Shown: in pieces, positions 901-60,200 of the stretch
Layout of the letters: every line of letters starts with the position of its first letter
Position numbering within the stretch: the stretch's first letter is position 1
DNA from: Candidatus Hydrogenedentota bacterium
GTDB taxonomy: Bacteria; Hydrogenedentota; Hydrogenedentia; Hydrogenedentales; G963678445
Length of the DNA: 64,000 nucleotides
Assembly: GCA_963678445.1 (NCBI GenBank)
Contig: OY782877.1
Coordinates: forward strand, 2,602,503-2,666,502
Reading direction: 5' to 3'
Program-made: the position numbers and the translations under genes
The notes under the pieces: model-generated
Seen by the model: the letters and a program-made list of their open reading frames with translations, nothing else
The model's database searches: none
Told to the model about the DNA's origin: nothing

Positions 901-3399
901 ATGGAACGCATGCATGGTATTGTGCAACGTTTTGCGTTTTTAGTGACTAAAATTCCAAGAGTTGTCATAAAAAACGAAGTTTTGCTATGGTCAGGGACGG
1001 TGAGGACCAGACCTATAGCTTGCGGTCGCTGGACCGCTTTAGCGATCTTCAAAGCGGAAAAGGGAGCTGCAATTCGACGCTGGCTACAGCCCGTTTTCAT
1101 TCTTGGCGTGCTCATCGGCGGGATTAGCCTTTCCTATGCCGCGTTCGCATCATCCCACTATTTTTACAATGGTGCACAACGGGTCACGATATCGATACCA
1201 ACCGATGCGTTCTATGTCCAAGAAAAACCAGAACGTTCCCCTACACCCATTGTGCAACTATTTCCGGAGGCATTGTTCGAACGCAGTTATGCAAAGGGGA
1301 AGTATCTTTTACGCTTTCCTAACAAGCCGTTGGGGGAGCCCGCCCAAATTACAGCGCAATTACAAGAGGCCGGATGGGATGCCTTTCCTTTGATCTATTT
1401 CTCCGATACCCGCGAAGACATAAAAGGACAACGGCCCCGCATGTTGTTGCCCCGAATCAGTGTACGCCTTCCCGAGACAGCTTCGCTGGATAACCTGCTC
1501 GCCCGCTTCCCGGTTCAAAAAATAGAAGAAGTTGCCTACCTTCCCGATACATATATTCTGTCCCCCCTTTCGGATGTTTGGATTTCTGCTTTAGAGGTTG
1601 CCAATGCCCTGTATGAAAGCGGTCTGGTAGTATTTGCGACGCCGTGGGTTACGCAACGACGTGTGCTGCGAAGTATTCCCGATGATCCGCTGTTTTCTTC
1701 ACAATGGCACTTGCAGAATACCGCGCAAAACACGGGGGCGGTATCGGGTAACGATATCGATGTAGTCGATGCCTGGGACGATGCCACGGGGAGTGGGGTG
1801 CTTATTGCCATTACCGATGATGGTCTGGATCAAAGCCACGCAGATCTGGCTGCCCATGTAAGAGCCGACTTGGGACTCGACCTGGTAGATGACGATAACA
1901 ACCCTTCCGCAGGAGATCATGGCACCGCATGCGCCGGTTTGGCGGCTGCCATTGGAAATAACACGCTGGGCATTGCCGGGGTGGCCTACAATGCCGCGTT
2001 GGTCGGCGTGCGCCTCTTCGATTTAGAATATCCCGTGGACGATGATGAGGCGACAGCGTTTCAATACGGTGTTACAGCCGAAAATGACGCCGATATAATC
2101 GCTATTAATAACAATTCCTGGGGGCCTGCGGACGATGCCAGGCGTTTGGAAGGGCCGGGGCCGTTGGCGCAGGCGGCGTTGGAACAGGGGATACTGCAGG
2201 GACGCAACGGGAAAGGGGTTATTTATGTATGGGCAGGCGGTAATGGGCGTAGCCAAGGCGACAACGTAAACTACGATGGCTATGCCAACAGCCGTTATAC
2301 CATTGCCGTAGGTGCTTCCACCGATACCGGCGTATACGCTAGTTACAGCGAGGCGGGCGCGGCCCTGCTCCTAAACGCCCCCTCCAGCGGTGGAAACGCA
2401 GGCATTGTCACCACCGATTTTACCGGGGCAGCAGGCTATACCTCCACCGACTACGAAATGGATTTCGGCGGTACCTCCGCCTCCTGTCCACTCGTTTCCG
2501 GTGTCGTTGCGCTACTTTTGGAAACCAATCCAGCACTCACCTGGCGTGATGTACAAGATATCCTGCTGCGCAGCGCCACAAAGAACGATCCAACATCAGA
2601 CGGCTGGCGCACCAATGGAAGCGGCCTCTTGTTTCACCATGATTATGGATTTGGGCGTGTAAACGCAGAATTGGCAGTGAAAATGGCCCAGTCCTGGACC
2701 CTGCTTCCTGCTCAGGAGGCGGCACAAGAGTGGGAAGATGCCCCAGCAATGCCCATTCCTGATAACAACGCCCAAGGTATTGTGCTGCACAGATCGGTAA
2801 TTACGCCGGCCCGTTTCGTAGCGGAGCATGTTGAAGTGACGGTAGACATCAGTCACCCTCGACGCGGCGATTTGGAGATTAGTCTGATTTCACCCAGCGG
2901 TATGGAGTCGCAATTGACCAGAAAACACGATGACCCCAATGCCGACTTTTCCAACTGGTCCCTGATGTCGGTTGCTCACTGGGGAGAAGCGCCCAATGGC
3001 ATATGGACGCTCCGTGTTTGTGATCAACGCGGGGGCAATGTGGGGGTGCTCAACGCCTGGCGTTTAAGCATACATGGTTACCGTAGCGCCGATACAGTCC
3101 ACGAAGGAGAATCGGCCTATCATAGCGCCGACATCAACCAGGATGGCCAGATTAGCATAAGCGAACTCTTGCGGGTTATACAGCTCTATAACGCAAACGA
3201 ATACGGTTGCGACACCGGTTCAGAAGATGGCTACGCCCCTAACGGGTTGTTCCGTACCTGCCCGCCACACTACAGCGATTATGCCCCCGCAAACTGGCGC
3301 CTGGAACTTTCCGAACTGCTCCGCATCGTGCAGTTTTTCAATGCAACCGGCTATGAGCCTTGTGTGGAAAGCGAAGACGACTTTTGTCCTTTTCTTTAA
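901..3399 (+). CDS. Subtilisin-like serine protease of family S8 with a proprotein-convertase (kexin-like) P domain and a C-terminal dockerin-like or EF-hand-like segment. The true start is probably downstream of 901. An in-frame GTG at about 1108 precedes a hydrophobic signal or anchor segment.
   Basis: S8 catalytic motifs are present: Asp in IAITDDGLD, His in DHGTACAGLAAA and Ser in GGTSASCPLVSGVVALLLE. The P domain matches RRGDLEISLISPSGMESQL...WTLRVCD. The tail DINQDGQISISELLRVIQLYN matches a Ca-binding dockerin-like loop. The first 50 codons of the track ORF are occupied by a REP-like repeat. Confidence 0.85.
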   Translation: MERMHGIVQRFAFLVTKIPRVVIKNEVLLWSGTVRTRPIACGRWTALAIFKAEKGAAIRRWLQPVFILGVLIGGISLSYAAFASSHYFYNGAQRVTISIPTDAFYVQEKPERSPTPIVQLFPEALFERSYAKGKYLLRFPNKPLGEPAQITAQLQEAGWDAFPLIYFSDTREDIKGQRPRMLLPRISVRLPETASLDNLLARFPVQKIEEVAYLPDTYILSPLSDVWISALEVANALYESGLVVFATPWVTQRRVLRSIPDDPLFSSQWHLQNTAQNTGAVSGNDIDVVDAWDDATGSGVLIAITDDGLDQSHADLAAHVRADLGLDLVDDDNNPSAGDHGTACAGLAAAIGNNTLGIAGVAYNAALVGVRLFDLEYPVDDDEATAFQYGVTAENDADIIAINNNSWGPADDARRLEGPGPLAQAALEQGILQGRNGKGVIYVWAGGNGRSQGDNVNYDGYANSRYTIAVGASTDTGVYASYSEAGAALLLNAPSSGGNAGIVTTDFTGAAGYTSTDYEMDFGGTSASCPLVSGVVALLLETNPALTWRDVQDILLRSATKNDPTSDGWRTNGSGLLFHHDYGFGRVNAELAVKMAQSWTLLPAQEAAQEWEDAPAMPIPDNNAQGIVLHRSVITPARFVAEHVEVTVDISHPRRGDLEISLISPSGMESQLTRKHDDPNADFSNWSLMSVAHWGEAPNGIWTLRVCDQRGGNVGVLNAWRLSIHGYRSADTVHEGESAYHSADINQDGQISISELLRVIQLYNANEYGCDTGSEDGYAPNGLFRTCPPHYSDYAPANWRLELSELLRIVQFFNATGYEPCVESEDDFCPFL
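939..1048 (+). repeat. REP-like dispersed repeat copy, about 100 bp, ending in the GGTCGCTGGACCGCTTT motif.
   Basis: Sequence tagtgactaaaattcc...cttgcggtcgctggaccgcttt aligns with the units at 7901-8200, 32042-32165, 41502-41625, 45472-45612 and 59752-59870. Confidence 0.6.
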
Positions 3400-3451
3400 C
3401 GCCACTGTGTGCGCAGGTTGCTAACGGATACCACTGAGGCAGCGCGATTAT

Positions 3452-4036
3452 TTACTCCGCTGTCCCCGTCACGTCTTGTAGGGTCTTCTCGAGCTTCTCA
3501 ACATCGAACCCCTGCTGTGTCAGCTCCTCCACGATCGCATTATAGAGCTCCTCCTCCATATTCGGGGTGCGACTCAGTATCCAGAGCACACTGCGCGTCG
3601 GATTCGAAACCACCGCATAGCGATACGCTTCATCCAGCTGTATGATCCAATAATCAGCAGGGAAAAGGCACACGGGAAAAGGGTCGAAGCGTATCCGCAA
3701 TTTCGCGGGTTCATTTTCATCAGGAAGGGACGCATATCCTTGTATACGAGATACCTTCCCATCCAACGTTTCCTTATATCCCCGATTGATCAGGCGGATG
3801 CGGCCATCCTCCTCCAACGTATACTCCGCCGTGACCCCGACAAGGTTCCGTTCAAAAAAGACAGGAAAACGGGCGATTTCATACCAGAGTCCCATATACT
3901 GTGCGATATCCAGCTGCGCCACTGTCTGCGGTGGATTCTTTGCAGGACATCCCATGAGAAAAAGAGCACCCGTTACGCTCAAAAAAACGGTAATACTGGA
4001 TAGCCCCAGTATCCGGGCAGTGCTTTCCTTTTGCAT
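3452..4036 (-). CDS. blc: Outer-membrane lipoprotein of the bacterial lipocalin (Blc) family.
   Basis: Lipocalin motif YMGLWYEIARFP. Signal peptide with lipobox LFLMGC. The internal Met is preceded by AAAGGGGGAGACAA on the minus strand. The track ORF 3452..4090 was trimmed to this Met. Confidence 0.8.
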   Translation of the reverse strand: MQKESTARILGLSSITVFLSVTGALFLMGCPAKNPPQTVAQLDIAQYMGLWYEIARFPVFFERNLVGVTAEYTLEEDGRIRLINRGYKETLDGKVSRIQGYASLPDENEPAKLRIRFDPFPVCLFPADYWIIQLDEAYRYAVVSNPTRSVLWILSRTPNMEEELYNAIVEELTQQGFDVEKLEKTLQDVTGTAE

Positions 4037-4366
4037 TTGTCTCCCCCTTTCATTCGGCTTTCGAATAAGTCTACGCACGTAGCATAACATCAGGCCGCAG
4101 GAGCTTTAGTCCACCGAAAATATGCTAAAGCCTCTTAGCTAAGCCTAGCGTAGTGCAGAAAACCTGTCAAGGGAATTGTATAGCAGCATTTACAACGCTT
4201 TTCCCTGAAAGTACTCGTTATGTTTTTTCACAATCCATTTCTCTTTTTTTCTGTGTCCACACCCGTCAAGAAATACATTGTAGTCCTTGGAATGATCGTT
4301 CATAAAAACGGGATAATGTAAAAAATAGCAGTCTTTTTTATGGGCGGCTAGCGTGTTTTCCCCAAG

Positions 4367-4601
4367 TTATCCACAAGCACTTGGCAGCCCTCAATAGTAA
4401 TTTCTTGACAAAATAAACAGGAAGAATCCCCTTTCAAACGAAAATGAGATGTTTTTCGGGGTGCAATCTGCCTTAGAAATAGGTGGAGAATGGGGGTTTG
4501 ACTGATTATTAATGGATTGCGCCGAACTTTTAAGAAATTCGACCTTTTTTCATTCTCCGTCGTTAGACTTAGTCTAATTCGTTATCCACTGGTTATCCAC
4601 A
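4367..4601 (+). promoter_or_regulatory. Cluster of DnaA-box motifs. TTATCCACA occurs at about 4367-4375 and 4593-4601, and TTATCCACT at about 4582-4590. They sit in an AT-rich 960-bp intergenic region.
   Basis: Two exact matches to the DnaA-box consensus TTATCCACA and one 8/9 match. The tandem pair lies about 30-50 bp upstream of the -35 of the nrdDG promoter. Flanking A/T tracts are present. Confidence 0.4.
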
Positions 4602-4631
4602 GGATATAGGGGTCTCTTTTAAACAGACCCC

Positions 4632-4660
4632 TTGACATGGGGGACGAAGTGGGCTACAAT
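4632..4660 (+). promoter_or_regulatory. Near-consensus sigma70-type promoter for nrdDG, TTGACA-N17-TACAAT.
   Basis: cTTGACAtgggggacgaagtgggcTACAATc. Both hexamers are consensus or near-consensus and the spacer is 17 nt. The inverted repeat GGGGTCT-N10-AGACCCC at about 4608-4631 abuts the -35. Confidence 0.5.
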
Positions 4661-5051
4661 CAAATCCATCGTTGGTTGCGCTTGGGCGCATAAAGCCGAC
4701 GAACCTTTGATACGCTTTTTCATAGGCGAGAAAGCGGATCTTGAGGGGAAATGCAGTTTTGTATGCGGCATCCGGAGTGTGTTCTTGGGAGATTTCGTGT
4801 TTTTTACACTCTTGTCGATGTAGAAGTGGGGTGGCTGTATTCGATTGCACCAAAATGACAACAGGCGAGCTGTGTCTGTCCATAATTTGTGACGGTTGCT
4901 CCAGCAAGTGGTTCCGAAAGAACGAAGCTTCGCGATGGTGCAACAGGCAAGCGCTTGTTTATGGGTGTAGATAGAAAAGATGGTTGCTATTGGGTGTAGT
5001 CTTTGGGCTGCTGGGCGCATTTATATAACTGGGTGGAAGGGCGAAAGAGGG

Positions 5052-7211
5052 ATGAAAGCTGCGGCGCAGGAAGTACAAGATATACAAAAAGAGACCGAGA
5101 ATTCGTTTTTTACGGAGATTACCAAACGGGATGGTCGTCAAGCGCCTTTTGACGCGATGAAGATTACCCAGGCGCTACTGAAAGCGGGGCAGGCCACGGA
5201 TGAGTTTGGAGAAGATATCGCCCGACAGCTGACCATGCGGGTTTTGGTCGTATTACAAGCGATGCCCTATGAGGGGGCGCCCACAGTGGAACAGGTGCAG
5301 GATGTCGTAGAGCAGACGTTGCTGGTGTCGCCGTACAAACGCAGCGCCAAAGCCTATGTGTTATACCGTGATCAGCATGCCCGTATCCGTGAAATGGTGA
5401 AAAAGGCGGATGTCGACCTGATCGACCGATATTTGGAGCGTCTGGATTGGAAAGTCCAGGAAAACAGTAACATGGCCTATTCGCTGCAGGGCTTGAACAA
5501 CTATATCTCCAGCGAAGTAAGCAAGATTTACTGGCTGAACAAGATTTATACGCCCGATATTCGGGAAGCGCATAACAATGGCGATTTGCATGTACACGAT
5601 TTGGGCCTGCTTTCAGTCTATTGCGTGGGCTGGGATCTTCAGGATTTACTGCGTTGCGGTTTTCGCGGCGCTCCTGGTAAAGCAGAAAGTAGTCCGGCGC
5701 GCCACTTCCGTACAGCGCTGGGTCAGATTGTCAATTTCTTCTATACACTGCAGGGGGAAGCGGCTGGCGCGCAGGCGTTCAGCAATTTTGACACCCTTTT
5801 AGCACCGTTCATCCGCTATGACCAATTAGGCTATCCCGAAATCAAGCAGGCCTTGCAGGAATTTGTATTCAATCTCAATGTGGCCACCCGCGTGGGTTTT
5901 CAAACCCCGTTTACCAATGTCACGATGGATCTGCAACCCCCTGGCACCTTGGCAAATGAGCCGGTGATTATCGGTGGTGAGCTTAAATCGGAAACGTATG
6001 GCGACTTCCAGGAGGAAATGACCCTGCTGAATGCGGCCTTCCTTGAGGTGCTTTCCGAAGGCGACGCCAAGGGACGGGTTTTCAGTTTTCCAATCCCTAC
6101 ATATAATATTGCGGAGGATTTTGACTGGGAACGACCGGGATTGGACCGTTTGTGGGAAGTAACCGCGAAGTATGGTATTCCGTATTTTGCGAACTTTGTG
6201 AATTCGGACATGTCGCCCGATGATGCCCGCTCGATGTGCTGCCGACTGCGCCTCGATCTGCGTTCGTTGGAAAAGCGCGGCGGCGGTCTCTTTGGTGCTA
6301 ATCCGCTTACCGGTTCTATTGGCGTGGTCACGATCAACATGCCACGTCTGGGGCACCTGGCCAAAGATGAAGCCGATTTCATGGTGCGTCTGGATCGTCT
6401 TATGGAGGTGGCGCGCACCAGCCTGGAAACCAAGCGCAAGGTGCTGGAGCGTTTTACGGATAAGCATCTATATCCGTATACGAAATTCTATCTGCGCGAT
6501 ATCAAAAAACGCCACAAGCAGTATTGGTTTAACCATTTTTCGACCATTGGCCTTATCGGTATGAACGAGGCCTGTGTCAATTTGTTGGGTGTGGGCATCG
6601 GTACAGAAGAAGGGGTTGGTTTTGCCCAGCGCGTGCTCGATCACATGCGGGAACGCCTGACGCAGTTCCAAGAAGAGACAGGGAATTTCTACAATCTGGA
6701 AGCCACGCCCGCGGAAGGTACGACGTACCGCCTGGCGCGGTTGGACCGGGAACGCTTTCCGGGCATCCATTTTGCCAATGATCCGGAAATTGCAGACGGT
6801 GCGGAACCTTTTTACACCAATTCCACCCAGTTACCGGTGAATTACTGCGACGACGTTTTTCATGTGTTCGACTTGCAGGATAGCCTACAGGCGCGCTATA
6901 CCGGTGGCACCGTCCTGCACGTATTCCTGGGTGAGGCGGTGGCCGATCCTCAATCGGTAAAAACCTTTGTGAAGCAAGTGTGCAGCAATTACAAGCTGCC
7001 CTACTTCACCCTGTCTCCCAGTTTTTCGATATGTCCCAGCCATGGCTATCTGCGTGGAGAACATGCGGCCTGTCCGCAATGCGGCGCTACTACCGAAGTC
7101 TACTCACGCGTTGTAGGGTATCTCCGCCCCGTGAACCAGTGGAATGAAGGGAAACAGGCGGAATTTGAATTGCGTAGCCGCTACCAAATTGAGGCGACAT
7201 CATGCAAATAG
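5052..7211 (+). CDS. nrdD: Anaerobic ribonucleoside-triphosphate reductase, class III RNR.
   Basis: N-terminal ATP-cone (MKITQALLKAGQA...). C-terminal Cys cluster CPSHGY...CPQCG and the glycyl-radical motif RVVGYL. The start was moved to the Met preceded by AAAGAGGG. The track ORF starts at 4980. Confidence 0.9.
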   Translation: MKAAAQEVQDIQKETENSFFTEITKRDGRQAPFDAMKITQALLKAGQATDEFGEDIARQLTMRVLVVLQAMPYEGAPTVEQVQDVVEQTLLVSPYKRSAKAYVLYRDQHARIREMVKKADVDLIDRYLERLDWKVQENSNMAYSLQGLNNYISSEVSKIYWLNKIYTPDIREAHNNGDLHVHDLGLLSVYCVGWDLQDLLRCGFRGAPGKAESSPARHFRTALGQIVNFFYTLQGEAAGAQAFSNFDTLLAPFIRYDQLGYPEIKQALQEFVFNLNVATRVGFQTPFTNVTMDLQPPGTLANEPVIIGGELKSETYGDFQEEMTLLNAAFLEVLSEGDAKGRVFSFPIPTYNIAEDFDWERPGLDRLWEVTAKYGIPYFANFVNSDMSPDDARSMCCRLRLDLRSLEKRGGGLFGANPLTGSIGVVTINMPRLGHLAKDEADFMVRLDRLMEVARTSLETKRKVLERFTDKHLYPYTKFYLRDIKKRHKQYWFNHFSTIGLIGMNEACVNLLGVGIGTEEGVGFAQRVLDHMRERLTQFQEETGNFYNLEATPAEGTTYRLARLDRERFPGIHFANDPEIADGAEPFYTNSTQLPVNYCDDVFHVFDLQDSLQARYTGGTVLHVFLGEAVADPQSVKTFVKQVCSNYKLPYFTLSPSFSICPSHGYLRGEHAACPQCGATTEVYSRVVGYLRPVNQWNEGKQAEFELRSRYQIEATSCK

Positions 7212-7864
7212 GCGGTTTCCAACCTTTCACGCTTAGCGATTTTCCAGGGCATTTGGCGGCCATGGTATTTACACAAGGATGTAATTTCCGTTGCCCTTTC
7301 TGTCACAACGGCGCGTTGATTCCGAGTAGGGCAGCGGCAGGATTGATGCCGGAAGAAGAAGTGCTTTCTTTTTTGGAACAGCGTCGCAATCGTCTCACCG
7401 GTGTAGTGGTCACCGGCGGGGAGCCTACGATACAGCCGCGCCTGCCAGAGTTTTTGCGTCAGATAAAGGCGCTGGGCTATAAAGTGAAGCTGGACACCAA
7501 TGGCGCACGGCCTGCCGTATTGGCCGCATTGTTAGAAGAGGAGCTGCTGGATTACATCGCGATGGACCTCAAGGCGCCTCTAGAGCGCTATCACCGTTTG
7601 GCAGGGATTTGTGTGCCGGTACGCGATCTGGAAGAAAGCATTGCCATGATTTCATGGTCCGGCCTGGCCCACGAATTCCGCACGACGTTTGTAACGCCGT
7701 TGCTGAACCATCTCGATCTGATGGCGATACAAGCGTTGGTGCCGAGCAAATCGCACTATCGCGTGCAGCCCTTCGTGTCTGAGAATGCCCTCGATCCCGT
7801 ATTGCGTGGAGATGTGAAAGCGGTGCAGAAGCTCCCGAATACCACTACTGCAGAAGTTGCCTAA
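7202..7864 (+). CDS. nrdG: Anaerobic ribonucleotide reductase activating protein (radical SAM).
   Basis: CNFRCPFCHN is a CxxxCxxC radical-SAM motif. It overlaps the 3' end of nrdD by 10 nt, which is the typical operon arrangement. Confidence 0.85.
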   Translation: MQIGGFQPFTLSDFPGHLAAMVFTQGCNFRCPFCHNGALIPSRAAAGLMPEEEVLSFLEQRRNRLTGVVVTGGEPTIQPRLPEFLRQIKALGYKVKLDTNGARPAVLAALLEEELLDYIAMDLKAPLERYHRLAGICVPVRDLEESIAMISWSGLAHEFRTTFVTPLLNHLDLMAIQALVPSKSHYRVQPFVSENALDPVLRGDVKAVQKLPNTTTAEVA

Positions 7865-7895
7865 GCGAGCCGATAGGGAGATTCAGGCAACACAT

Positions 7896-8200
7896 TTAGT
7901 GACTTAAATCTGAAAAGCGGTCATCAAAAACGAAATTCCTGCTGCTGTCAGGAACGGTAAGGACCATATCTCTTGCTTGTGGTCGCTGGACCGCTTTGGT
8001 GGCTGACACCGCAAAAGCGGTCATCGAAGACGGAATTTCTGCTGCTGTCAGGAACGGCGAGGACCATATCTCTTGCTTGTGGTCGCTGGACCGCTTTGGT
8101 GACTGACACTGCAAAAGCGGTCATCGAAAACGGAATTTTTGCTGCTGTCAGGAACGGCGAGGACCATATCTCTTGCTTGTGGTCGCTGGACCACTTTAGT
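7896..8200 (+). repeat. Tandem array of three near-identical 100-bp REP-like units at 7901-8000, 8001-8100 and 8101-8200.
   Basis: The unit ...gcaaaagcggtcatcgaaRacgRaattYYtgctgctgtcaggaacggYRaggaccatatctcttgcttgtggtcgctggaccgctttggtg is repeated three times with a few substitutions. The motif GGACCGCTTT at each unit end can pair with AAAAGCGGTC at the next unit start. Confidence 0.85.
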
Positions 8201-8304
8201 AAGATCGCGGCAAGGCTCCTATGCTTTACAGCGAAGCTGGAGGTTGTACCTACAGCAATGGCCCCATGCAGCGTGCCACCCATTGCATATATCGAGGTAG
8301 TGCC

Positions 8305-9846
8305 ATGCCGTTGAATGTTTGTGTGCTTACAGAAGCAAGTCCTTTTTCCTGGACGCATCACTATGTCAATGCGTTTCGTCAACGTTGCAATGTTTTTGCC
8401 ATCGGTCCCGTGCCCCCGGATGCTTTTTATACGATGCTGCATCTGGAACACTTAAAGTCTTTGGTGCAACCGCACGATATTACAGAAAGACTGCGTAATA
8501 TCACTGATCTAAAATCGTTATTGCCTACCGGTTTTGTTCCCGATCTCGTTGTTTGTGTGATGCCATGTGTTAGCCAAGACACCTTTTATGCAACAACAAG
8601 CTTAGACTGTCCCAGCGTCTTTATTAGCATCGATATCTGGCAAGATTTTGCAGATTATGAGACAGCCGTAAATTACGATTTTGTTTTTGTAGCGCAACGA
8701 GAATTTGTTCCGTATTTGCGGGCAACGGGCTCGTTGCATCCTGAATGGTTACCGTTGGCCTGTGCTCCCGAAGTGCACCACTCACTGTCCACGCCTCCCA
8801 CACATGATATTGCCTATGTCGGCTCGAGTATTTCCCCAGTGCACAGCGAACGCCTACGATTGTTATTGCGGCTTGAAAAACAGTTTAAAGTAAATCGGCA
8901 GAGTCATGTTTATGGAGAAGAATATTGCCGGGGACTAGCGTCTGGGAAAATCATTTTCAATTACAGCGCTTCTGGTGATCTTAACATGCGGATATTTGAG
9001 GCCATGGCGGTCGGACGTATGCTGTTAACCGATCGTCGTGCTGTCCGAAATGGCTTGCTTGATCTTTTTGAAGAGGGCAAAGAGTTAGTCACCTATACAA
9101 ACGAGGATGACCTGCTTGAAAAGGCTGCCTATTATTTGGCGCATGACGAGGAGCGCGAACGGATCGCGGCGGCAGGACGCGCGGCGGTATTGCAACATCA
9201 TACCTATGCGCATCGTATCGATAGAATATTGGAGGTGGTCGGTCCTGCTTGTGCACGGCAAAAGGCATTTCGGGAAAGCACAGCAACGCCCTCGCCGTTG
9301 CTACAGTTATTGCCTGCCAACCCGGGACGTGTTGCGGATCTGGGTATGAGCGGGTTACTAAGCAAGTATGCGGTTAAGAAATGGGGCGGCGAAAATTTTT
9401 TTGGCGTTTCGCTTGACGAGTGTACGCCGCGTAGCATGCGCTATGATCAGGTTGTGTGTTGGCTAGGAGAGGCGCAAAGCGCCGATACGGTATTGCTTTG
9501 CGATTGTGACACCACGGTACATTCTCTATCCACGCAAATAAGCGCTTCGTGGAAGCTTTTGGATGTTTGCGGAACGCTCATTCTTCTGGTATTGAGGGAA
9601 GCTCTGGAAAAAGCGGATATTCCGACCGATTTTGAGGAGCTCAACACCTGGATGCTCAAGTTGGATTTTTACCTTATCTACGGTAACGTGTTGCGCGAAG
9701 ATATGTTGGTGCTGCGTGCGCGCAAGCGTACTCGACGGATCTACGATGTTTATACCGAACTCAAGCAGAGTTATCCGCTAGAGCACACGATGATGAACCC
9801 CCGTTTTTTTGAAAGCCTTTCAGAAGAAATGCAGAGATTACTGTAA
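8305..9846 (+). CDS. CgeB-family (DUF3880 plus Glyco_trans_1_2-like) glycosyltransferase-domain protein with an additional C-terminal domain of about 180 aa. Paralog 1.
   Basis: The CgeB-like C-terminal GT motif runs KIIFNYS...NMRIFEAMAVGRMLLTD...ELVTYTNEDDLLEKAAYYLAHDEERERIAAAGRAAVLQHHTYAHR. The start was set at the Met aligned to the paralog start (MPLNVCVLTE) with GAGGT upstream. The track ORF starts at 8221. Confidence 0.75.
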   Translation: MPLNVCVLTEASPFSWTHHYVNAFRQRCNVFAIGPVPPDAFYTMLHLEHLKSLVQPHDITERLRNITDLKSLLPTGFVPDLVVCVMPCVSQDTFYATTSLDCPSVFISIDIWQDFADYETAVNYDFVFVAQREFVPYLRATGSLHPEWLPLACAPEVHHSLSTPPTHDIAYVGSSISPVHSERLRLLLRLEKQFKVNRQSHVYGEEYCRGLASGKIIFNYSASGDLNMRIFEAMAVGRMLLTDRRAVRNGLLDLFEEGKELVTYTNEDDLLEKAAYYLAHDEERERIAAAGRAAVLQHHTYAHRIDRILEVVGPACARQKAFRESTATPSPLLQLLPANPGRVADLGMSGLLSKYAVKKWGGENFFGVSLDECTPRSMRYDQVVCWLGEAQSADTVLLCDCDTTVHSLSTQISASWKLLDVCGTLILLVLREALEKADIPTDFEELNTWMLKLDFYLIYGNVLREDMLVLRARKRTRRIYDVYTELKQSYPLEHTMMNPRFFESLSEEMQRLL

Positions 9847-9864
9847 CGAATGCGGAGTGGTGCT

Positions 9865-11391
9865 ATGCCGTTGAATGTTTGTGTGCTTACAGAGGCAGGG
9901 CCTTTTTCCTGGACGCATCACTATGTCAATGCGTTTCGTCAACGCTGCAACGTTTTTACTATCGGTCCTGTGCCCCCGGAAATCTTTTATGACGCACTTC
10001 ATCTGGAACATTTAAAACCTTTAGTGCAACCCCACGATGTTACGACGGAACTGCAGACTATTACCGATCTCAAATCGTTGTTGCCTGCCGACTTTATTCC
10101 CGATCTGGTTGTTTGCGTGATGTCATGCATTGTTCAGCAGGCCTTTTATGCCACGACGAAATTGGATTGCCCCAGTGTCTTTATTAGTATCGACACCTGG
10201 CAAAATTTCAAAGACTATGCTGCTGCCATAAATTATGATTTTGTTTTTGTCGCGCAACGAGAGTTCGTTCCGTATTTGCGAGCAACAGGCTCCGTGTGTC
10301 CTGAATGGCTGCCGTTGGCCTGTGCTCCCGAAGTGCATCATCCACTACCCACGCCTCCCACGCATGATATTTCCTATGTTGGTTCGAGCAGTTCACCGGT
10401 GCACGGCGAACGCATGCGGCTGCTATCGCAACTTGGAAAACATTTTCGCGTGCATCAGCAGAGCAGTGTTTATGGAGACGAATATTGCCGTAGTTTGTCC
10501 GCCGGGAAAATTATATTTAATCACAGCGCCGTGCGCGAAGTGAACATGCGCATTTTTGAGGCTATGGCGGTCGGACGCATGCTGTTGACCAATCGAGAGG
10601 CAGATCGTAACGGACTGTTGACGCTCTTTACCGATGGGGTCGAGCTGGTTACCTATACGGACGAAGAAGACCTGCTTGAAAAGGCTGCCTATTATTTGGC
10701 GCATGACGAGGAGCGCGAACGGATTGCAGCGGCAGGATGCGCGGCGGTATTGCAGCACCATACCTACACGCATCGCATCGATAGGATATTGGAGGTGGTC
10801 GGTCCTGCTTGTGCACGGCAAAAAGCATTTCGGGAAAGCACAGCAACGCCCTCGCCGTTGCTACAGTTATTGCCTGCCAACCCGGGACGTGTTGCGGATC
10901 TGGGTATGAGCGGGTTACTAAGCAAGTATGCGGTTAAGAAATGGGGCGGCGAAAGTTTTTTTGGCGTTTCGTTTGACGAGTGTACGCCGCGTAACATGCG
11001 CTATGATCAGGTTGTGTGTTGGCCAGGAGAGGCGCAAAGCGCCGATACGGTATTGCTTTACGATTGTGACACCACGGTACATTCGTTACCCACGCAAATA
11101 AGCGCTTCGTGGAAGCTTTTGGATGCTTGCGGCACGCTCATTCTTCTGATGTCCCGGGGAACGCTGGCAGAAAATAATCTTGAGCCAGCGCAACTCAATA
11201 TGTGGATGCTCAAATTGAATTTTTACCTTATTTATGCGGGCGTAACGGGGGACGATAGATTTTTACTGCATGCGCGCAAACGTACACGACGCATCTACGA
11301 TATCTATGCCGAGATCAAACAGCACTACCCAATGGAACACACTATGGTAGAGGCTTGTTTTGCCGAAGACGAGCAGTTAAGGCAGTTTTAA
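9865..11391 (+). CDS. CgeB-family glycosyltransferase-domain protein. Paralog 2, in tandem with 8305..9846.
   Basis: Same architecture as paralog 1. Long stretches are near-identical at nucleotide level, for example 9204-9437 against 10764-10997. GGAG lies upstream of the ATG. Confidence 0.75.
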   Translation: MPLNVCVLTEAGPFSWTHHYVNAFRQRCNVFTIGPVPPEIFYDALHLEHLKPLVQPHDVTTELQTITDLKSLLPADFIPDLVVCVMSCIVQQAFYATTKLDCPSVFISIDTWQNFKDYAAAINYDFVFVAQREFVPYLRATGSVCPEWLPLACAPEVHHPLPTPPTHDISYVGSSSSPVHGERMRLLSQLGKHFRVHQQSSVYGDEYCRSLSAGKIIFNHSAVREVNMRIFEAMAVGRMLLTNREADRNGLLTLFTDGVELVTYTDEEDLLEKAAYYLAHDEERERIAAAGCAAVLQHHTYTHRIDRILEVVGPACARQKAFRESTATPSPLLQLLPANPGRVADLGMSGLLSKYAVKKWGGESFFGVSFDECTPRNMRYDQVVCWPGEAQSADTVLLYDCDTTVHSLPTQISASWKLLDACGTLILLMSRGTLAENNLEPAQLNMWMLKLNFYLIYAGVTGDDRFLLHARKRTRRIYDIYAEIKQHYPMEHTMVEACFAEDEQLRQF

Positions 11392-11409
11392 GCGATCTAT
11401 CCTTTGTGG

Positions 11410-11522
11410 TCATGATTAGTGCCTTAAATCGGAAAAGTTATTCTGCAAGACGAAAAAGCTGTTTCGCTCAGGGAGGGCAAGGGGCACCGCATCGCCAGTG
11501 GCGCTGACCAGTGCTCGTGCTT
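11410..11522 (+). repeat. Degenerate copy of the REP-like repeat.
   Basis: ttagtgccttaaatcggaaaagttattctgcaagacgaaaaagctg...ccagtggcgctgaccagtgct aligns loosely to the consensus unit and terminal motif. Confidence 0.4.
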
Positions 11523-11533
11523 GCTGACCCGCT

Positions 11534-12766
11534 TCAGCTGCTAAAAGGGGACTCAGCAATATCAAAGATATGCAGCACACTGCGCCGGCAGGCCTGTAAC
11601 GCACTGCGTTGTTCTTCGTTCAAGACACCCAACTCATCATCCAGCAACAATTCCACAAACCCCAGCACAGCGGACAAAGGAGACTGTAGCCGTTGCGAGA
11701 TGAGCGTCAGGGTTGTTTCACGCAATTCATTAACCTGCTGAAACTCCCGATTAAGCTCCTCAAGCTGCAGATGGGCAACCCGCGAAGCCTCCTGCAATTG
11801 TTTGCGTTCCGAGATGTCATGAAACATCGAGACAAAGAAGCGTTTTTCATCGCGCAAGAACGAACGCACCAAAACCTCTGCATTTCGTTCATTCCCCTCG
11901 GCGGTGTTGATCAGGAATTCACCACGGTACTCACCGTGTGCGCGTAGATTAGACAACTTATTAGCCAGCGTGCCATCGTCAAAAAAGAAACGACGAAAGC
12001 GTTGGCCTACCAACTGCGATTTATCCATTTCAAAGAATTCGGCAGCACGATCATTGGTGTGTGAAATAAACCCGTTTTCCTCATAAACGACAATCGGATG
12101 CGGCATGCTATCCAGGATAGTACGCAGCATAGCCTCTGAAGAAGCCAGCATCTGCGCCTGACGTCGATACTCATACCGGGTCTGATGCAAGCGCTCATTT
12201 AACGTTGACGCCAGCCAGCCAAAAAGTAGAATCGCAAAAAACTGTAAAGCAATCGGGGGGTATGCCAAATTTACCCCCAATAGCAACCACCGTATGATTA
12301 CAGTGAAAGTATAGGCTACGCTACAAAGCAGAGCGACTTGAAAGGGGCCATACTTTTGTGGGGAGTAGGCGCAATAGCCAATAACCAACAAGCCATAGGC
12401 AAGAGAGATGGGGCTCTCCTCACCGCCTGTCATCCCGATGGCCAGACTAATGCTTACGAGATTAAGCAAAAAATTCAGCGGACTCAGAAAAATCCGGTGT
12501 CGCTCAGCATAGAGTACAGCATGCGCATATACATTGTGCGCAACCGTTGCCGTCATCACAAGCCAAAGATTTGGAAGATAATCCGGCGTGATACCTAACG
12601 CATAACACACCACCACACTGAAAAAGCATAAATAACGAAGCGTTAACAGCATCCATTCTATGCGCACAACCGTTGCAAGTCGCGATTTTGTCGATTCCGC
12701 TTCCGGGTCAGGAAGCGAGCCAATAAATGGCGAGTGCACCGTTGTTTCCATACAATTCTGCCTCAC
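11534..12766 (-). CDS. Membrane sensor protein of histidine-kinase ancestry. It has a multi-TM N-terminal sensor, a PAS domain and a degenerate HisKA dimerisation domain, with no HATPase_c domain. It is either a pseudo-kinase or a truncated gene.
   Basis: About 190 aa of hydrophobic helices come first, then a PAS-like region (ILDSMPHPIVVYEENG...FHDISERK), then an H-box-like ISQRLQSPLSAVLGFVELL. In that segment Gln replaces the phospho-accepting His of the canonical SHELRTPL. The ORF stops immediately afterwards, next to a REP-like repeat. Confidence 0.7.
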   Translation of the reverse strand: MRQNCMETTVHSPFIGSLPDPEAESTKSRLATVVRIEWMLLTLRYLCFFSVVVCYALGITPDYLPNLWLVMTATVAHNVYAHAVLYAERHRIFLSPLNFLLNLVSISLAIGMTGGEESPISLAYGLLVIGYCAYSPQKYGPFQVALLCSVAYTFTVIIRWLLLGVNLAYPPIALQFFAILLFGWLASTLNERLHQTRYEYRRQAQMLASSEAMLRTILDSMPHPIVVYEENGFISHTNDRAAEFFEMDKSQLVGQRFRRFFFDDGTLANKLSNLRAHGEYRGEFLINTAEGNERNAEVLVRSFLRDEKRFFVSMFHDISERKQLQEASRVAHLQLEELNREFQQVNELRETTLTLISQRLQSPLSAVLGFVELLLDDELGVLNEEQRSALQACRRSVLHIFDIAESPFSS

Positions 12767-13186
12767 TCAAGTCGTATGCAATTCCAAAGCCAGTACAAAT
12801 CCAGTTCGCATCATAACGGTGCATAGCGGTCTTTGGCAAAAAAAACTTTATCCGCCTCGCCGAAGTTATATTTAGGAGACGTCTTAAAAAGCCCCCCAAA
12901 ATTGTTTCGTCGTTTTTGGGGTGCAGGCTGCGGTAACTATGCAAGCTGCCGCTAATGCGAATACGTATTCTCTCTTGACGGTTGTGCAAGATTCTTTTAT
13001 AATTTTATCTTAGATTCACTCCATTGCCGCAGATTAAAGTATAAGTGAAGAACAGGAACGGCATGGAAAGCTAAAAGAATAGCGCATATAAACGCACATT
13101 GCACCACCAAAATGTAAAAAAAACCTTGCTGCAAGATGCAGACAAAATGCGGGAAAGTGAAAAAAATCAAAAGCGCGACAAGATAT

Positions 13187-13215
13187 TTGACTTTGCGCAC
13201 GACTTGTGTTCTAAT
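13187..13215 (+). promoter_or_regulatory. Putative sigma70-type promoter, TTGACT-N17-TCTAAT, in the AT-rich region upstream of the dockerin-protein gene.
   Basis: TTGACTttgcgcacgacttgtgtTCTAAT. It lies about 255 bp upstream of the 13471 start. Confidence 0.3.
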
Positions 13216-13470
13216 ACGCCACGTATTAGCGTAGGCGGAGTGTCGTTTATTGCACCGCAATATAAATCGCGACATGCCCCTAAAAACGCCAATACACCCC
13301 ACAATTTAAAGGAGAAACCTCGAAGCTTTTGGCCGTTCTGAGCCGAAGATGAACCGAAAAATCCCACTCGATTCGGCTGTAGAGCGCAAAAAGCGTCAAG
13401 GTGTTATTTAGTAGAATTAGTTTAGTCAGTATTCTTTTGGAAAGAATGGAACAACAGGGAGCTAACAAAA

Positions 13471-14283
13471 ATGAAGATGTTGCGTATCAGCCGAAGGAGT
13501 CAACTGGGGCGTTCGAAGTTTGCCCTGGCGCTCATGACCTTGACGTTAATTCTGGGCGTAGCGGCAGTACCGGCCTCGGCCCAAACCGTCACCTATAACC
13601 AAACTGTCCCCGCGACCTATCAAGCTGACAATGAAGTCACCGTAGTTTTGGAACTAACCAAGACTGCCGGCGACGGAGTCATTACCGCCTTGGGTGTTTC
13701 TCTCGTTATTCCCACCGGTTGGGAATTGGTGCTTGAAGCTCCCGATCCTGTCGAAGGACAGCTTTGCATTCCGGATATCACCTACGTATCCCCCAACGAC
13801 GGCCCTCCCGTTTTCGCTAAAGCCCCCTCTCCCGTCTATCTAGACGAAACTGCCGGCGCGGAAGTTTGTAACCCCTACGTTTCCCCCATCGAACTCGTCT
13901 GGGCGCCCAACGAAGCAGCTGAAGGCGAAAATAACGCGCCGCCTACCTTCCCTACCAGCGTCACCCTGAAGCTGAAAGTGCCTGCCGATGCAGATGGCGA
14001 CGTCTCCATTATCGGTACCGCCTTCTACCGTCTCGACGGCACCGAGCAATCCACCGCACCCGCGACCAGCAATCTGAGCCTAGCGACAGGCGTGCGTGGT
14101 GATGCCGATTGTAGCGGTGCGGTCAATATTTTTGACGCCCTCAAGATTCGTCAGCTGCTGGCCAGCCTGATCGACAGCATTGGCTGCCCCGAGCTGGCTG
14201 ACGTAAGTGGCAATGATACAGTTGATATTTTTGATGCTCTTAGAATTAGCCAGTTCCTGGCGGGTTTGGTTGACACACTCTAA
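13471..14283 (+). CDS. Secreted protein with a C-terminal type-I-like dockerin domain and an N-terminal beta-rich domain that may be cohesin-like.
   Basis: Signal peptide MKMLRISRRSQLGRSKFALALMTLTLILGVAAVPASA. Two Ca-binding dockerin segments are present: DADCSGAVNIFDALKIRQLL and DVSGNDTVDIFDALRISQFL. AGGGAG lies 9 nt upstream of the ATG. Confidence 0.8.
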   Translation: MKMLRISRRSQLGRSKFALALMTLTLILGVAAVPASAQTVTYNQTVPATYQADNEVTVVLELTKTAGDGVITALGVSLVIPTGWELVLEAPDPVEGQLCIPDITYVSPNDGPPVFAKAPSPVYLDETAGAEVCNPYVSPIELVWAPNEAAEGENNAPPTFPTSVTLKLKVPADADGDVSIIGTAFYRLDGTEQSTAPATSNLSLATGVRGDADCSGAVNIFDALKIRQLLASLIDSIGCPELADVSGNDTVDIFDALRISQFLAGLVDTL

Positions 14284-14377
14284 GAGCTGTACAAATGAGA
14301 GAAATGCAGTACATGACTGCAAAACCATATTAGCCGGGGCCTCGGCAACGAGGCCTCCCAATCTGGGGAGGTACACA

Positions 14378-17300
14378 ATGAGAACAAAGACAAGTAGGAT
14401 GTTTCGCAGCATGCCCTTGTGGGTGCTTTGCCTGACAGCGCTGTGCGTTGTCAGCAGCGGTGCATTTGCCGCCGTTGGAGACATTACCATTTCAGCACCT
14501 GCTGAAGCACAAAATACCGGTGATACCTTTGAAGTCGAAGTTACCTTCGATGCGGGCACTGGCGTATTAGGTGCATATGATTTAGTGTTTACTTTTGATA
14601 AAACTATTTTTCAAGTCAATAGCGTTGCCGGAGGAACGACCAGTGAATTCAGTGGTCCACCCACCAGCAACGTTCAAAACGATTCCGGCCAAGTGCTTTT
14701 TAACGCCGTGAACGCCGTCAGTCTGACCTCGCCTACCGGTGTAGTCAGCATTGCGCGTTTCACTGTTGAAGTGATTGGCAATCCTTCGGGCGGAACCAGT
14801 AACTTGGGTATTACAGTAACCGCTATTGGCGATACGACTGGTTCGTCCTTTGATACGGTAACACCGGTTGCGGGAACAGTCACACTGACAGAACCGCCTC
14901 TCGACGCTGTGATTGATTTGGCGCTGCCAGATACGTCTCCCGAAGCCAGTTCCCAGTTCACAGCCGAATTAACCATTGATGTTGGTGATAAGGTATTAGG
15001 CGCATATGACTTCAAATTGGTCTACGATAAAGACGTTGTTACAGTAGCGAAGGTCCTTGGTGGTTCGACCAGTGAATTCAGTGGTCCTCCAACCGCCAAC
15101 ATCCAGAATGAGTCTGGTCAAGTTCTGTTTAACGCCGTGAACGCCGTCAGCCTGTCTTCTCCGACGGGTGTAGTCAGCATCGCCAACATCACCTTTGATG
15201 TTGTAGGCGAAGCGGCGAGTTCTACCGCTATCGAAGTGCGCGTAACCGCATTGGGCGACACCGGTGGTTCCAGCCTGACAGTTGAAAACTTCAGCGAAAC
15301 CTTGACGGTAGCCGCAGGGCCACCCGATGCGGTGATCGATCTGGCTCTACCAGAAACCGATCCTGCGCCGAGTTCGCAATTCACGGCAGAATTGACGATT
15401 GATGTTGGTGATGATAACGTATTAGGCGCATATGACTTCAAATTGGTCTACGATAAAGACGTTGTTACAGTAGCGAAGGTCCTTGGTGGTTCGACCAGTG
15501 AATTCAGTGGTCCTCCAACCGCCAACATCCAGAATGAGTCTGGTCAAGTTCTGTTTAACGCTGTGAACGCCGTCAGCCTGTCTTCCCCGACGGGTGTAGT
15601 CAGCATCGCCAACATCACCTTTGATGTCGTAGGTGAAGCAGGCGCTTCTACCGCTATCGAAGTGCGCGTAACCGCATTGGGCGACACCGGTGGTTCCAGC
15701 CTGACAGTTGAAAACTTCAGCGAAACCTTGACGGTGTTGGATCAAGACGTCACTGATCCGACAGCGGTCTGTCAAAGCATCACCGTGCAGCTGGATGCTT
15801 CAGGAGCAGCCAACATCACAGCGGAACAGGTAGACAATGGCAGTTCCGATAATGTCGGTATTGACAGCATGGGCGTTTCGCCGAGTTCTTTCAGCTGTGC
15901 GGATCTGGGTGACAATACCGTTACCTTGACCGTGGCCGATGCAGCCGGTAACAACGCAACATGCGAGGCCACAGTAACCGTGGTGGACAACATTGCGCCA
16001 GTAGCCGTTTGCCAAAACATTACAGTCAATCTGAGTGCATTGGGCACTGCTACAATCACTGCTGCTCAGCTTGACGGCGGAAGTAGCGATAACTGCGGTA
16101 TTACCACCATGACGGCTAGCAAAGACAGCTTTACCTGCGCTGATCTTGGTGCGAATGACGTGACCTTCGCAGTTGAAGATGCCTCCGGAAATGGCGACTC
16201 CTGCACGGCGACGGTAACGGTGGTAGATGTTACGCCGCCGACCATCACCCTGACAGGCGCCAGCCCTGTGACCGTTGAATGCGGTGGCGACTACACCGAT
16301 GCCGGTGCCACTGCAATTGATACCTGCGATGTCGATTTGACGAACAGTATCATAGTCGGCGGTGACACCGTTGATACGACAACGCCGGGAAGCTATACCA
16401 TCACCTATAACGTGAGCGACACAGCAGGTAATGCTGCGACGCAAGTCACGCGTACCGTCAACGTTACCGATACAACAGCGCCAGTCGTTACCTTGAATGG
16501 TGCCGACAGTGTCACCATCGAATGTGGCGACACCTATATTGATGCGGGTGGTACGGCAACGGACAGCTGTGATTCCAGCAGCTTGACGGTAACCACCAAT
16601 GCCGCTACAGCAGTGAATACAGCTGCAGCAGGTACCTACACCGTAACCTTGCGTGCAGAAGATGCCAGCGGCAATGTCGGTACGGCAACACGTGAAGTAA
16701 AGGTGGAAGATACAGAAGCCCCAGTCATTAGCTTGATTGGTTCGGTCGCGGTTGAAGTTGAATGCGGTGGTATCTATGCAGACCAGGGTGCAAGTGCAAC
16801 CGATAGCTGCGCCGGTGACCTGAGCGCCAATATCGTAGTTAACAACCCGGTTGATACAACATCTCTGGGCGAATACACAGTAACCTACAACGTGAGCGAT
16901 GCTACCGGTAATGCGGCTGAGCAAGTCACGCGTACAGTCACGGTCGTTGACGAAGTCGCTCCCACACTGGTGTTAGTAGGCGGCAACGTGACCGTTGAAT
17001 GTGGCGATTCCTACACGGATGCCGGTGCAACAGCGACGGATACCTGTGAAGGCGACTTGACGGCGAGCATCGTTGCCACTGGCATCGACGCCGTTGATAC
17101 GGCAACGCCGGGCACCTACACCATCAGCTACAACGTAAGTGACACCGCTGGCAATGCTGCGGATCAGGTTGCACGCACAGTGCAGGTGATTGACACCACC
17201 ATTCCAGTGATTACCCTGGCAGGTGCAAATCCGCTGACCGTAGACTGCAGCGACAGCTACACCGATCCTGGCGCTAGCGTTGAAGATGCCTGCGACACGA

Positions 17301-41501: not shown

Positions 41502-41625
41502 GGGCACTGGACCATAACTTTAGTGCCAAACTTCGCAGAAGTTGCCATCAAAACGAAATCTTTGCTGTGCTCACGCACGTCGAGGACCGTAGTTCTTGCA
41601 TGTGGACGCTGGACACTTTAGGTAA
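41502..41625 (+). repeat. REP-like dispersed repeat copy.
   Basis: gtgggcactggacca...aaacgaaatctttgctgtgctcacgcacgtcgaggaccgtagttcttgcatgtggacgctggacacttta. Confidence 0.6.
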
Positions 41626-45436: not shown

Positions 45437-45471
45437 GAGAAGGCAGGAGTGTTAAGGGCTATATCTCCTGG

Positions 45472-45612
45472 GTGTGGCTGGCCATCTTGTGGCCGCTGGA
45501 CCGCTTTAGTGACTGAAATCTGAAAAGCTGTCATGAAAAACAGCGTTTTACTTCGGTCAGGATTGGTAAGGACCCTATCTATTGGTTGCGGTCGCTGGAC
45601 CGCCTTAGACGC
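45472..45612 (+). repeat. REP-like dispersed repeat copy with two motif copies.
   Basis: cttgtggccgctggaccgctttagtgactgaaatctgaaaagctgtcatgaaaaacagcg...ggttgcggtcgctggaccgcctta. Confidence 0.6.
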
Positions 45613-49462: not shown

Positions 49463-49465
49463 AAT

Positions 49466-59684: not shown

Positions 59685-59751
59685 GCGTACTACCTCCATC
59701 AACCTTGTTGCGCTACGCCCTATGGGCGCACCGTCATTTGGAATACTCGTC

Positions 59752-59870
59752 TCTAAAGCGCGGTCCAGCAACGCAAGGTGGCTCGATGATCCTTACCGTG
59801 CCTGACCGTAGCAAAACTTCATTTTTAATGTCAGCGTTTGAAGTGTCGGCCACTAAAGCACTGCACATGT
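59752..59870 (-). repeat. REP-like dispersed repeat copy in the opposite orientation.
   Basis: The reverse complement reads ...gtggccgacacttcaaacgctgacattaaaaatgaagttttgctacggtcaggcacggtaaggatcatcgagccaccttgcgttgctggaccgcgcttta. Confidence 0.6.
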
Positions 59871-60171
59871 TCCCAATCCAGCAGAAGTTGCTTTAAACAA
59901 TTACGGGTGGCTTTACCGCGCGAGCGCCATGCTGTACAATACACCACCATATTGTAGCAACGATGTTGCAAATACGCCAAGCTTAATGCGAAGTTCGGGC
60001 GCGAAACGGCAGGTTTTTCAAAAAAAGTTTTTTTAGCAGAACCCACCTGCCGCAGGAGACGGACAACCCTTGTCGAAACGGGCTGGTCAGAAATTTGACA
60101 AGCCCCCTGTGCACGGAGTACTATACCACACTCTGTGCGTCTGTATGCGGCGAAAAACCGTTTATTTATAC

Positions 60172-60200
60172 TCAAAGCGGTCCAGCGACCGTAGACGATA
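60172..60200 (-). repeat. Solo copy of the repeat terminal motif. The reverse complement is ctacggtcgctggaccgctttgag.
   Basis: An exact GGTCGCTGGACCGCTTT core with no attached 100-bp unit. Confidence 0.4.

Follow-up and report, generated by a model that had tools for sequence, protein, structure and literature searches.

A dispersed family of non-coding repeats with TTTAG borders and a 3' hairpin in a Candidatus Hydrogenedentota genome

Copies in the window and in further loci of the genome

The 64,000-nt stretch of Candidatus Hydrogenedentota bacterium contig OY782877.1 analyzed here (the window) carries an ordinary chromosomal set of genes, including nrdDG, glycosyltransferases, histidine kinases, flagellar genes, nadA, pfk, rpsD and purA, and, between these genes, many copies of a repeat unit of about 105 bp. 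The nearest named homologs are from Candidatus Hydrogenedentes, with 77-79% identity for NrdD and at most 70% for a 731-aa protein (41859-44054). A preliminary description of the window had proposed a dispersed, non-coding, intergenic repeat family, and this proposal is borne out by 24 copies and fragments in 99.4 kb of the genome.

These 99.4 kb (non-redundant) comprise the window and three loci of the same genome. The NrdD protein of the window is 100% identical to P0001, which is encoded on a 5.11-Mb NCBI contig and on a 926-kb ENA contig. Exact look-ups of two further window proteins, the 823-aa heparinase-like ORF and S4, gave no record, probably owing to different calls of the start codons. 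Locus L058, taken from the 926-kb contig, is 99.1% identical to window positions 1-17209 and adds 5 kb upstream of the window, L067 covers 8.6 kb downstream of it, and L069 spans 21.9 kb around the gene of a protein, P0242, on a different, 3.55-Mb contig (ctg97496l) of the same assembly. For comparison we used loci L059 and L068 of a second assembly, ENA ERZ21878204, referred to below as the relative, whose DNA is about 94% identical to the window.

A 17-nt motif of the unit, GGTCGCTGGACCGCTTT, occurs nine times in the window when up to three mismatches are allowed, while shuffled sequences give an expectation of 0.2. Copies were located by blastn with one unit and then with an nhmmer profile in a first and a refined version. 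In the window these searches yielded 13 copies or fragments at nine sites, all of them intergenic, to which one site occupied only in the relative is added below.

937-1046, plus strand: full unit with a DUF4838 gene on one side and a subtilase gene on the other (nhmmer E=4e-30)
7891-8001, plus strand: unit 1 of a tandem array (nhmmer E=8e-34)
7992-8101, plus strand: array unit 2 (nhmmer hit); the array junctions read TTTGG in place of TTTAG
8094-8203, plus strand: array unit 3, whose hairpin is of the U-A type, like that of the single orthologous unit of L059
11409-11543, plus strand: degenerate unit containing a small, nested hairpin insert (nhmmer E=9e-17)
12875-12892, no strand: empty site where L059 has a full unit (L059 16081-16186, minus strand)
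21500-21530, minus strand: weak 3' fragment, GCGCTC-GCTG-GACCGC then GTTAG (nhmmer E=0.017; motif match with 2 mismatches)
32040-32165, plus strand: full unit with duplicated 3' hairpin module, antisense to both neighboring genes (nhmmer E=9e-24)
41435-41514, plus strand: shortened, diverged unit in the spacer between divergent nadA and a gene of unknown function, kept in L068 (nhmmer E=8e-7)
41515-41625, plus strand: full unit, second of a diverged tandem pair (nhmmer E=1e-23)
45443-45510, plus strand: 3' partial unit with double hairpin, right after the stop codon of an FtsA-like gene (nhmmer E=5e-6)
45498-45613, plus strand: full unit that starts exactly after ...CGCTTTAG and ends ...CCTTAG (nhmmer E=8e-30)
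59751-59863, minus strand: full unit, inverted, upstream of a 720-aa gene of unknown function (nhmmer E=1e-22)
60173-60235, minus strand: 3' fragment (core, hairpin, tail) in the spacer before rpsD, with an exact match to the 17-mer (nhmmer E=6e-6)

The sites listed in the preliminary description were right, each coordinate to within a few bases; what it missed were the second units at 41.5 kb and 45.5 kb and the weak fragment at 21.5 kb. The first copy, 937-1046, shows the typical arrangement, with the hairpin GCGGTC-GCTG-GACCGC at 1022-1037 and TTTAG at both flanks, and is 96% identical to its ortholog in L059. The array at 7891-8203 consists of three head-to-tail units between nrdG and a glycosyltransferase gene (TRF period 100, 2.8 copies, 94% matches). 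The degenerate unit at 11409-11543, which lies between convergent glycosyltransferase and PAS histidine-kinase genes, is 73% identical to its L059 ortholog, and the head-to-tail pair 41435/41515 is 92% identical to L068 over its whole length.

Outside the window, 35 kb of this genome contain eleven further copies or fragments. The 5 kb upstream hold three of them, a 3' fragment with doubled hairpin (L058 4-91) and a tandem pair of full units (582/683), and a fourth, weak minus-strand match was seen in L058 with the first profile only. No copy was found in the 8.6 kb downstream of the window. In the 21.9 kb of L069 the first profile detected nine copies or fragments and the refined profile eight. 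The nhmmer total for the genome sample, 24 copies and fragments on two contigs, includes 19 that are near full length. The sampled density, about one copy per 4 kb or approximately 2.4% of bases, is even higher than the estimate of about one per 8 kb in the preliminary description. Extrapolation to the 5.1-Mb genome would give several hundred to roughly a thousand copies, a figure that is uncertain because L069 was itself reached via a repeat.

Local segmental or tandem duplication could in principle account for a repeat seen in one stretch, and the array does have this character. Its units are 81-89% identical outside the hairpin and 88-95% identical over whole units, closer to one another than to any other copy, so the array grew locally. 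As an account of the family as a whole, however, duplication of this kind is hardly credible, with copies at nine separate intergenic sites over 60 kb that are only 60-75% identical and have unrelated flanks. It is refuted by the nine copies on the different, 3.55-Mb contig. These, together with the copies in the 5 kb upstream, also dispose of the concern raised in the preliminary description that a genome-wide search might find only the local copies.

Beyond this genome and the relative, the family appears to be restricted to its lineage. Seven loci (96.8 kb; L060-L063 and L070-L072) of relatives with 80-84% NrdD identity gave no match at E<=10. A 21-nt degenerate pattern searched in JGI metagenomes gave three chance matches without extended similarity, and IMG/VR gave zero matches, as did blastn searches of plasmids and phages. 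The bare 17-mer, searched in 596 Gb of contigs, was found at 57 loci, all of them single 19-25 nt matches in unrelated taxa, where about 70 would be expected by chance.

A concatenated six-frame translation of the repeat was used to search a set of 5.8 billion proteins, and it is this search that led to L069. It returned two matches only, the N-terminus of the subtilase call next to the first copy of the window and P0242. The public call for the subtilase/P-domain protein (832 aa; ORF 901-3399) starts at 901 and so translates the copy at 937-1046 as its N-terminus. This start is probably mis-called, since a segment resembling a signal peptide begins only at about residue 60. The second match is a genuinely genic copy, the only one among the 24. 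It is a full unit at 10733-10840 of L069 inside a Wzy_C/TPR (O-antigen-ligase-like) gene, on the opposite strand to that gene and read through in frame. It corresponds to residues 245-280 of P0242 (SKAVQRPQARGMVLAIPERQKNSFFMTAFQILATKT) and adds 35 residues. The Pfam Wzy_C match in this protein extends over 182 residues for 146 profile positions, and most homologs align in two stretches that break at the repeat segment. In a multiple alignment the segment falls within a variable loop, and five of seven homologs have a gap there. Repeats of this family corrupt gene calls, as seen in the subtilase start and in the 35 repeat residues of the Wzy_C protein.

Anatomy of the unit and its 3' hairpin

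The unit is about 100-105 bp long, starts TTTAG/TGACTGAAATCTGAAAAGCnGTCAT and ends CTTG-GYGGTC-GCTG-GACCRC-TTTAG, the slash marking its left boundary. From 5' to 3' it consists of the head TGACTGAAATCTGAAAAGCnGTCAT, an A-rich stretch, the core GGTCAGGnACGGyAAGGACCATAyCT, one or sometimes two hairpin modules, and the tail TTTAG. The consensus reads TTTAG / TGACTGAAATCTGAAAAGCTGTCAT AAAAAACGAAATTTTT GCTgcGGTCAGGgAyGGyAAGGACCATAyCTcTTG CTTG GYGGTC GCTG GACCRC TTTAG. The head motif can also be written TTTAG/TGACTGAAATCTGAAAAGC and the tail motif GYGGTCGCTGGACCRCTTTAG. Direct reading of the head shows that each of the three forward frames contains a stop codon. The 5' box of most solo copies reads AAAGCTGTC or AAAGTTRTC, and several sites hold only the 3' part of the unit, that is core, hairpin and tail.

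An alignment of the termini, which the preliminary description had recommended, defines the unit ends at (T)TTAG. The left flank of every full copy is (T)TTAG, with no conservation upstream of it, and copies end in yTTAG, so that (T)TTAG stands on both sides of nearly every copy. The alignment was less informative about target-site duplication, as left and right TTTAG variants do not covary; one TTTAG may belong to the element. The unit ends, TGACTGAAAT... and ...GGACCGCTTTAG, are not complementary, and the unit therefore has no terminal inverted repeats. The label MITE (miniature inverted-repeat transposable element) in its classical sense, to which the term MITE-like of the preliminary description refers, does not apply to a unit with ends of this kind.

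What the unit does have is an imperfect subterminal 9-bp inverted repeat, which had been noticed as a stem between the end of one unit and the start of the next. The complementarity of AAAGCGGTC and GACCGCTTT is real, and it is strong in the three-unit array, where the junction hairpin of units 1 and 2 (window 7985-8030) folds with -20.7 kcal/mol. Elsewhere it does not hold up as a conserved structure. Across 15 copies 73% of positions are paired, which equals the mean of shuffled sequences, the central pair is broken in 10 of the 15, and there is no covariation. Inspection of the alignment likewise revealed no conserved or covarying hairpin at the head, the TGAC/GTCA pairing failing in several copies.

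The only structurally supported element is a 3' hairpin of 16 nt and 6 bp, GYGGTC-GCTG-GACCRC. In 25 copies 88.6% of its cells are paired. Its second pair is C-G in 11 copies, U-A in eight and U.G in five, with one non-pair in a misaligned copy (w41515); by inspection, C.A does not occur at all. The covariation score was reached by none of 500 shuffles, slid registers scored far lower, and the hairpin was also supported on 15 copies. Copies of the C-G and U-A types are interspersed among nearest neighbors; the covariation is therefore not simply that of two subfamilies. That U.G is tolerated and C.A never occurs would point to a role of the hairpin on the unit's plus strand, as single-stranded DNA or RNA.

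Seven copies carry a second, degenerate hairpin module (GTGGCGCTGGCCAC-like) ahead of the terminal one, and this subfamily indicates that the hairpin behaves as a separately duplicable module. The second module lies at the following positions.

Window: 32120-32137 and 45460-45480
L058: 8-30
L069: about 4735-4752, 7330-7347 and 13550-13570

Unrelated small hairpins were also seen nested in single units, CCCACGG-AGGA-CCGTGGG and CGCCA-G-TGGCG (L059 12885-12922; window approximately 11497-11515). These may represent a second, tiny type of hairpin insert or local palindrome formation.

A conserved, separable hairpin module invites comparison with repetitive extragenic palindromes (REP) and with the mosaic elements (BIME) and doublets (REPIN) built from them, a label already suggested in the preliminary description. 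Under this explanation the 16-nt hairpin would be a REP recognized by a domesticated RAYT (Y1 HUH), and the 105-bp unit a BIME-like mosaic that this protein spreads and clusters. Several observations fit. The copies are extragenic and clustered, the short GC-rich hairpin is the most conserved part of the unit, and the module occurs doubled, alone or in 3' fragments (60173-60235, 21500-21530, 45443-45510, L058 4-91). The acceptance of U.G and not of C.A would suit recognition of one strand, as for HUH enzymes. However, conserved sequence that is not palindromic makes up about 85% of the unit, and with approximately 105 nt, five times the hairpin length, the unit differs from an imperfect palindrome of 20-40 nt. 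On the unit strand the hairpin stands between CTTG and TTTAG, and on the other strand CTAAA comes before it; a GTAG-type tetranucleotide is absent beside it. The units are arranged head to tail, not as the alternating or inverted pairs typical of BIMEs and REPINs. The RAYT or other cognate protein which had been proposed as a search target was not found either, as there is no RAYT, Y1_Tnp or other transposase domain in the approximately 100 kb examined (window, L058, L067 and L069) of this 5.1-Mb genome. The family is thus not of the REP/BIME type in the defined sense, being non-palindromic, head to tail, without a GTAG box and with no RAYT seen, and we consider this explanation unlikely.

The covarying hairpin could also belong to an RNA. 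In this case the repeats would be small RNA genes or cis-regulatory RNA elements in many copies, sometimes tandem like some small RNA arrays, and the unit length of about 100 nt, the tandem array and the tolerance of U.G in the hairpin would be in line with this, as would the one-sided helix changes in RNAalifold, all of which are G-U compatible on the unit plus strand. Folding of the whole unit is weak and inconsistent, however. Mean z-scores over 15 copies are -1.3 and -1.1 on the two strands, a single array unit gives -1.7 and -2.0, and the RNAalifold consensus has -7.2 kcal/mol. No Rfam family matched at its gathering score in the whole window, or at E<=1 on the array. A promoter scan of the array found none. 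A terminator scan gave a single terminator-like site, located on the minus strand of unit 1, a result within the range of shuffled sequences; the site is not shared by the other copies. Since the repeats also occur in both orientations relative to neighboring genes, decay fast in sequence and in one case lie antisense within a coding region, we find an RNA family very improbable.

Divergence, orientation and turnover

The copies are old and have diverged to a mean pairwise identity of about 0.6, and the best dispersed pairs reach about 0.75-0.79; only the units of the array are closer (0.81-0.89). Between this genome and the relative, identity amounts to 87.5% for orthologous repeats, 92.5% for other intergenic DNA and 93.8% for coding DNA. 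Orthologous copies are not protected and are without sequence constraint, evolving no slower than other intergenic DNA.

The copies have no orientation bias. Between co-directional genes about five are in sense and seven in antisense orientation, and by chromosomal strand about eight sites are plus and five minus around the window, with five plus and four minus in L069; none of these differences is significant.

These results bear on the possibility that the repeat is a DNA or RNA site maintained by the host, for instance a hairpin bound by a protein for nucleoid organization, stabilization of mRNA 3' ends or punctuation of transcription, and spread passively by recombination. Roles of this sort are known for REP and BIME elements. 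The strictly intergenic location, with copies often filling an entire spacer, and a conserved hairpin with compensatory change would agree with such a site. A host function would be difficult to reconcile with the indifference to flanking transcription, with orthologous copies that diverge faster than other intergenic DNA, and with sites gained or lost between genomes that are 94% identical. There are moreover no more than three T after the hairpin, and no terminator was detected on the unit strand. Maintenance by the host therefore seems improbable to us.

Three of the approximately eight sites shared with the relative differ, always at unit boundaries. The nrdG site has three units in the window and one in L059, and this single unit carries a 38-nt nested hairpin insert. 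Window 12875-12892 is empty where L059 has a full unit. Where the FtsA-like gene ends, the window has 1.5 units and L068 has 0.5, a 3' partial only. The suggestion that the family offers substrates for genome rearrangement is well founded in these three cases, and the repeats mark rearrangement hot spots between close strains.

Beside the array, directly downstream, lie two adjacent Glyco_trans_1_2 paralogs (8221-9846 and 9850-11391) with DNA about 83% identical. L059 has one such gene there, so that a gene-copy polymorphism stands next to the repeat-copy polymorphism.

The site at 45.5 kb allows the filled and empty states to be compared at nucleotide level. The window reads ...CGCTTTAG/TGACTGAAAT...CCTTAG/ACGC, and L068 reads ...CGCTTTAG/ACGT. 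The blastn alignment is interrupted at 45440-45573 of the window and 12396-12414 of L068, with breakpoints exactly at TTTAG/TGAC and TTAG/. The extra unit, 45498-45613, has a 5' half that is absent from the adjoining partial unit and is therefore not a duplicate of its neighbor. It may have been inserted in the window; alternatively, L068 may have lost one unit by recombination between homologous 3' halves.

Head-to-tail pairs of diverged units occur at five of about 17 sites. Three such pairs, 41435/41515, 45443/45498 and 582/683 in L058, are at most 74-75% identical, so they are not recent local duplications.

A mobile-element interpretation and known systems

Taken together, we interpret the family as lineage-specific, non-coding, non-autonomous elements which are mobile now or were so recently, and which insert beside (T)TTAG and recreate this site at their 3' end. 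We assign this reading a probability of about 0.65. One possible course of events is that an enzyme encoded elsewhere in the genome recognizes the 3' hairpin on one strand and that the element is inserted immediately 3' of (T)TTAG. The element's own TTTAG end would recreate the target at the 3' end of each copy, which would account for the frequency with which diverged units stand head to tail. Local unequal recombination might then amplify or collapse arrays, as in three units versus one. Inserted copies would decay at a roughly neutral rate and survive mostly between genes, an in-frame copy occasionally being tolerated in a variable protein loop. As to the enzyme, it is tempting to think of one that reads the hairpin and is specific for single strands, either HUH-type or of an undescribed kind, which would move the element next to TTTAG while the element regenerates the site; we offer this specific version as a tentative and rather doubtful proposal.

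Several points weigh against mobility of this kind. No transposase of any kind is present in the ~100 kb of genome examined, and the enzyme is hypothetical. No dispersed pair in the sample exceeds about 80% identity, a level that gives no direct indication of very recent transposition. Each of the three polymorphisms could have arisen by precise deletion, through recombination at the flanking TTTAG or at homologous 3' halves. Covariation in the hairpin comes down essentially to one base pair, and kinship among the copies could inflate it. Without terminal inverted repeats and without a 5' hairpin, the unit fits neither a MITE of the DDE type nor a textbook derivative of IS200/IS605. Finally, as left and right TTTAG variants do not covary, duplication of a random target is not shown.

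In behavior, the closest system is that of the bcr1-type repeats (bcr1-bcr18) of the Bacillus cereus group, a comparison by analogy that implies no homology. These are reported as lineage-restricted repeats of 100-400 bp without classical inverted repeats, whose mobility is tied to TTTAT (PMC6542083). Our family resembles them as a lineage-restricted, non-coding unit of this size class with ends marked by a repeated pentanucleotide, TTTAT there and TTTAG here, and in the presence of tens to more than 100 copies with numbers that vary between close strains. Unlike them, it belongs to a different phylum, with no sequence similarity found or expected; its sampled density is higher (~1 per 4 kb), and a short hairpin module, in some copies doubled, is present at the 3' end of its unit. 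For bcr1, transcription has reportedly been documented by Okstad et al. (2004). To our knowledge, the enzyme that transposes bcr1-like repeats is still not known.

Non-autonomous elements derived from IS200/IS605 (palindrome-associated transposable elements) share with our family the lack of terminal inverted repeats, asymmetric ends, a fixed tetra- or pentanucleotide immediately 3' of which they insert, and a hairpin near the right end. The differences are that inspection of the alignment revealed no matching hairpin at the left end, that the same TTTAG stands at the left flank and at the right end, which is unusual for that family, and that there is neither tnpA/tnpB nearby nor a chromosomal strand bias. 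Classical MITEs (Correia/NEMIS, RUP, ERIC) and Rickettsia palindromic elements (RPEs) are similar in size, in lacking coding capacity, in their intergenic preference and in presence/absence polymorphism. They differ in that our unit has no terminal inverted repeats, for which reason it is not a classical MITE, and in that the whole unit forms no long hairpin. In-frame insertion in a protein loop has been described for RPEs and some MITEs (PMC10969869); the genic copy in P0242 is alike in this respect, but here it is an exception (1 of 24 copies).

If the tentative proposal of a hairpin-reading, single-strand-specific enzyme is correct, the family would build its own landing pads, form head-to-tail arrays and occasionally remodel protein loops. 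No mobile-element system would have been described in Hydrogenedentota before it, and its end architecture, with one hairpin, no inverted repeats and the same pentanucleotide on both sides, would fit no catalogued insertion sequence (IS) family. The scientific value of the family is limited in that it adds one more small, pentanucleotide-associated repeat without inverted repeats, like bcr1, and no new category of biology. A complete genome with many copies and a sister genome at 94% identity would nevertheless make a good system for finding the transposition enzyme. The repeats may also prove useful as a marker for strain typing and assembly quality in this lineage, a practical value that we consider moderate.

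A few other features were observed in the course of this analysis. A 426-bp tandem repeat at window 14948-15735 (1.9 copies, 95% matches) lies within a 1470-aa surface-protein ORF (14207-18619), for which the public gene table gives cohesin and Ig-like domains, and looks like a duplicated protein domain. At window 24001-28000 a spike in GC skew (+0.23) and a dip in AT skew (-0.15) coincide with minus-strand SLT/TPR and sulfatase genes and are probably a gene-strand effect. In a distant relative with 84% NrdD identity, a bAvd/23S_rRNA_IVP-like gene adjoins a RelB/YafQ toxin-antitoxin pair (L070 10439-11495), unrelated to the repeat family.

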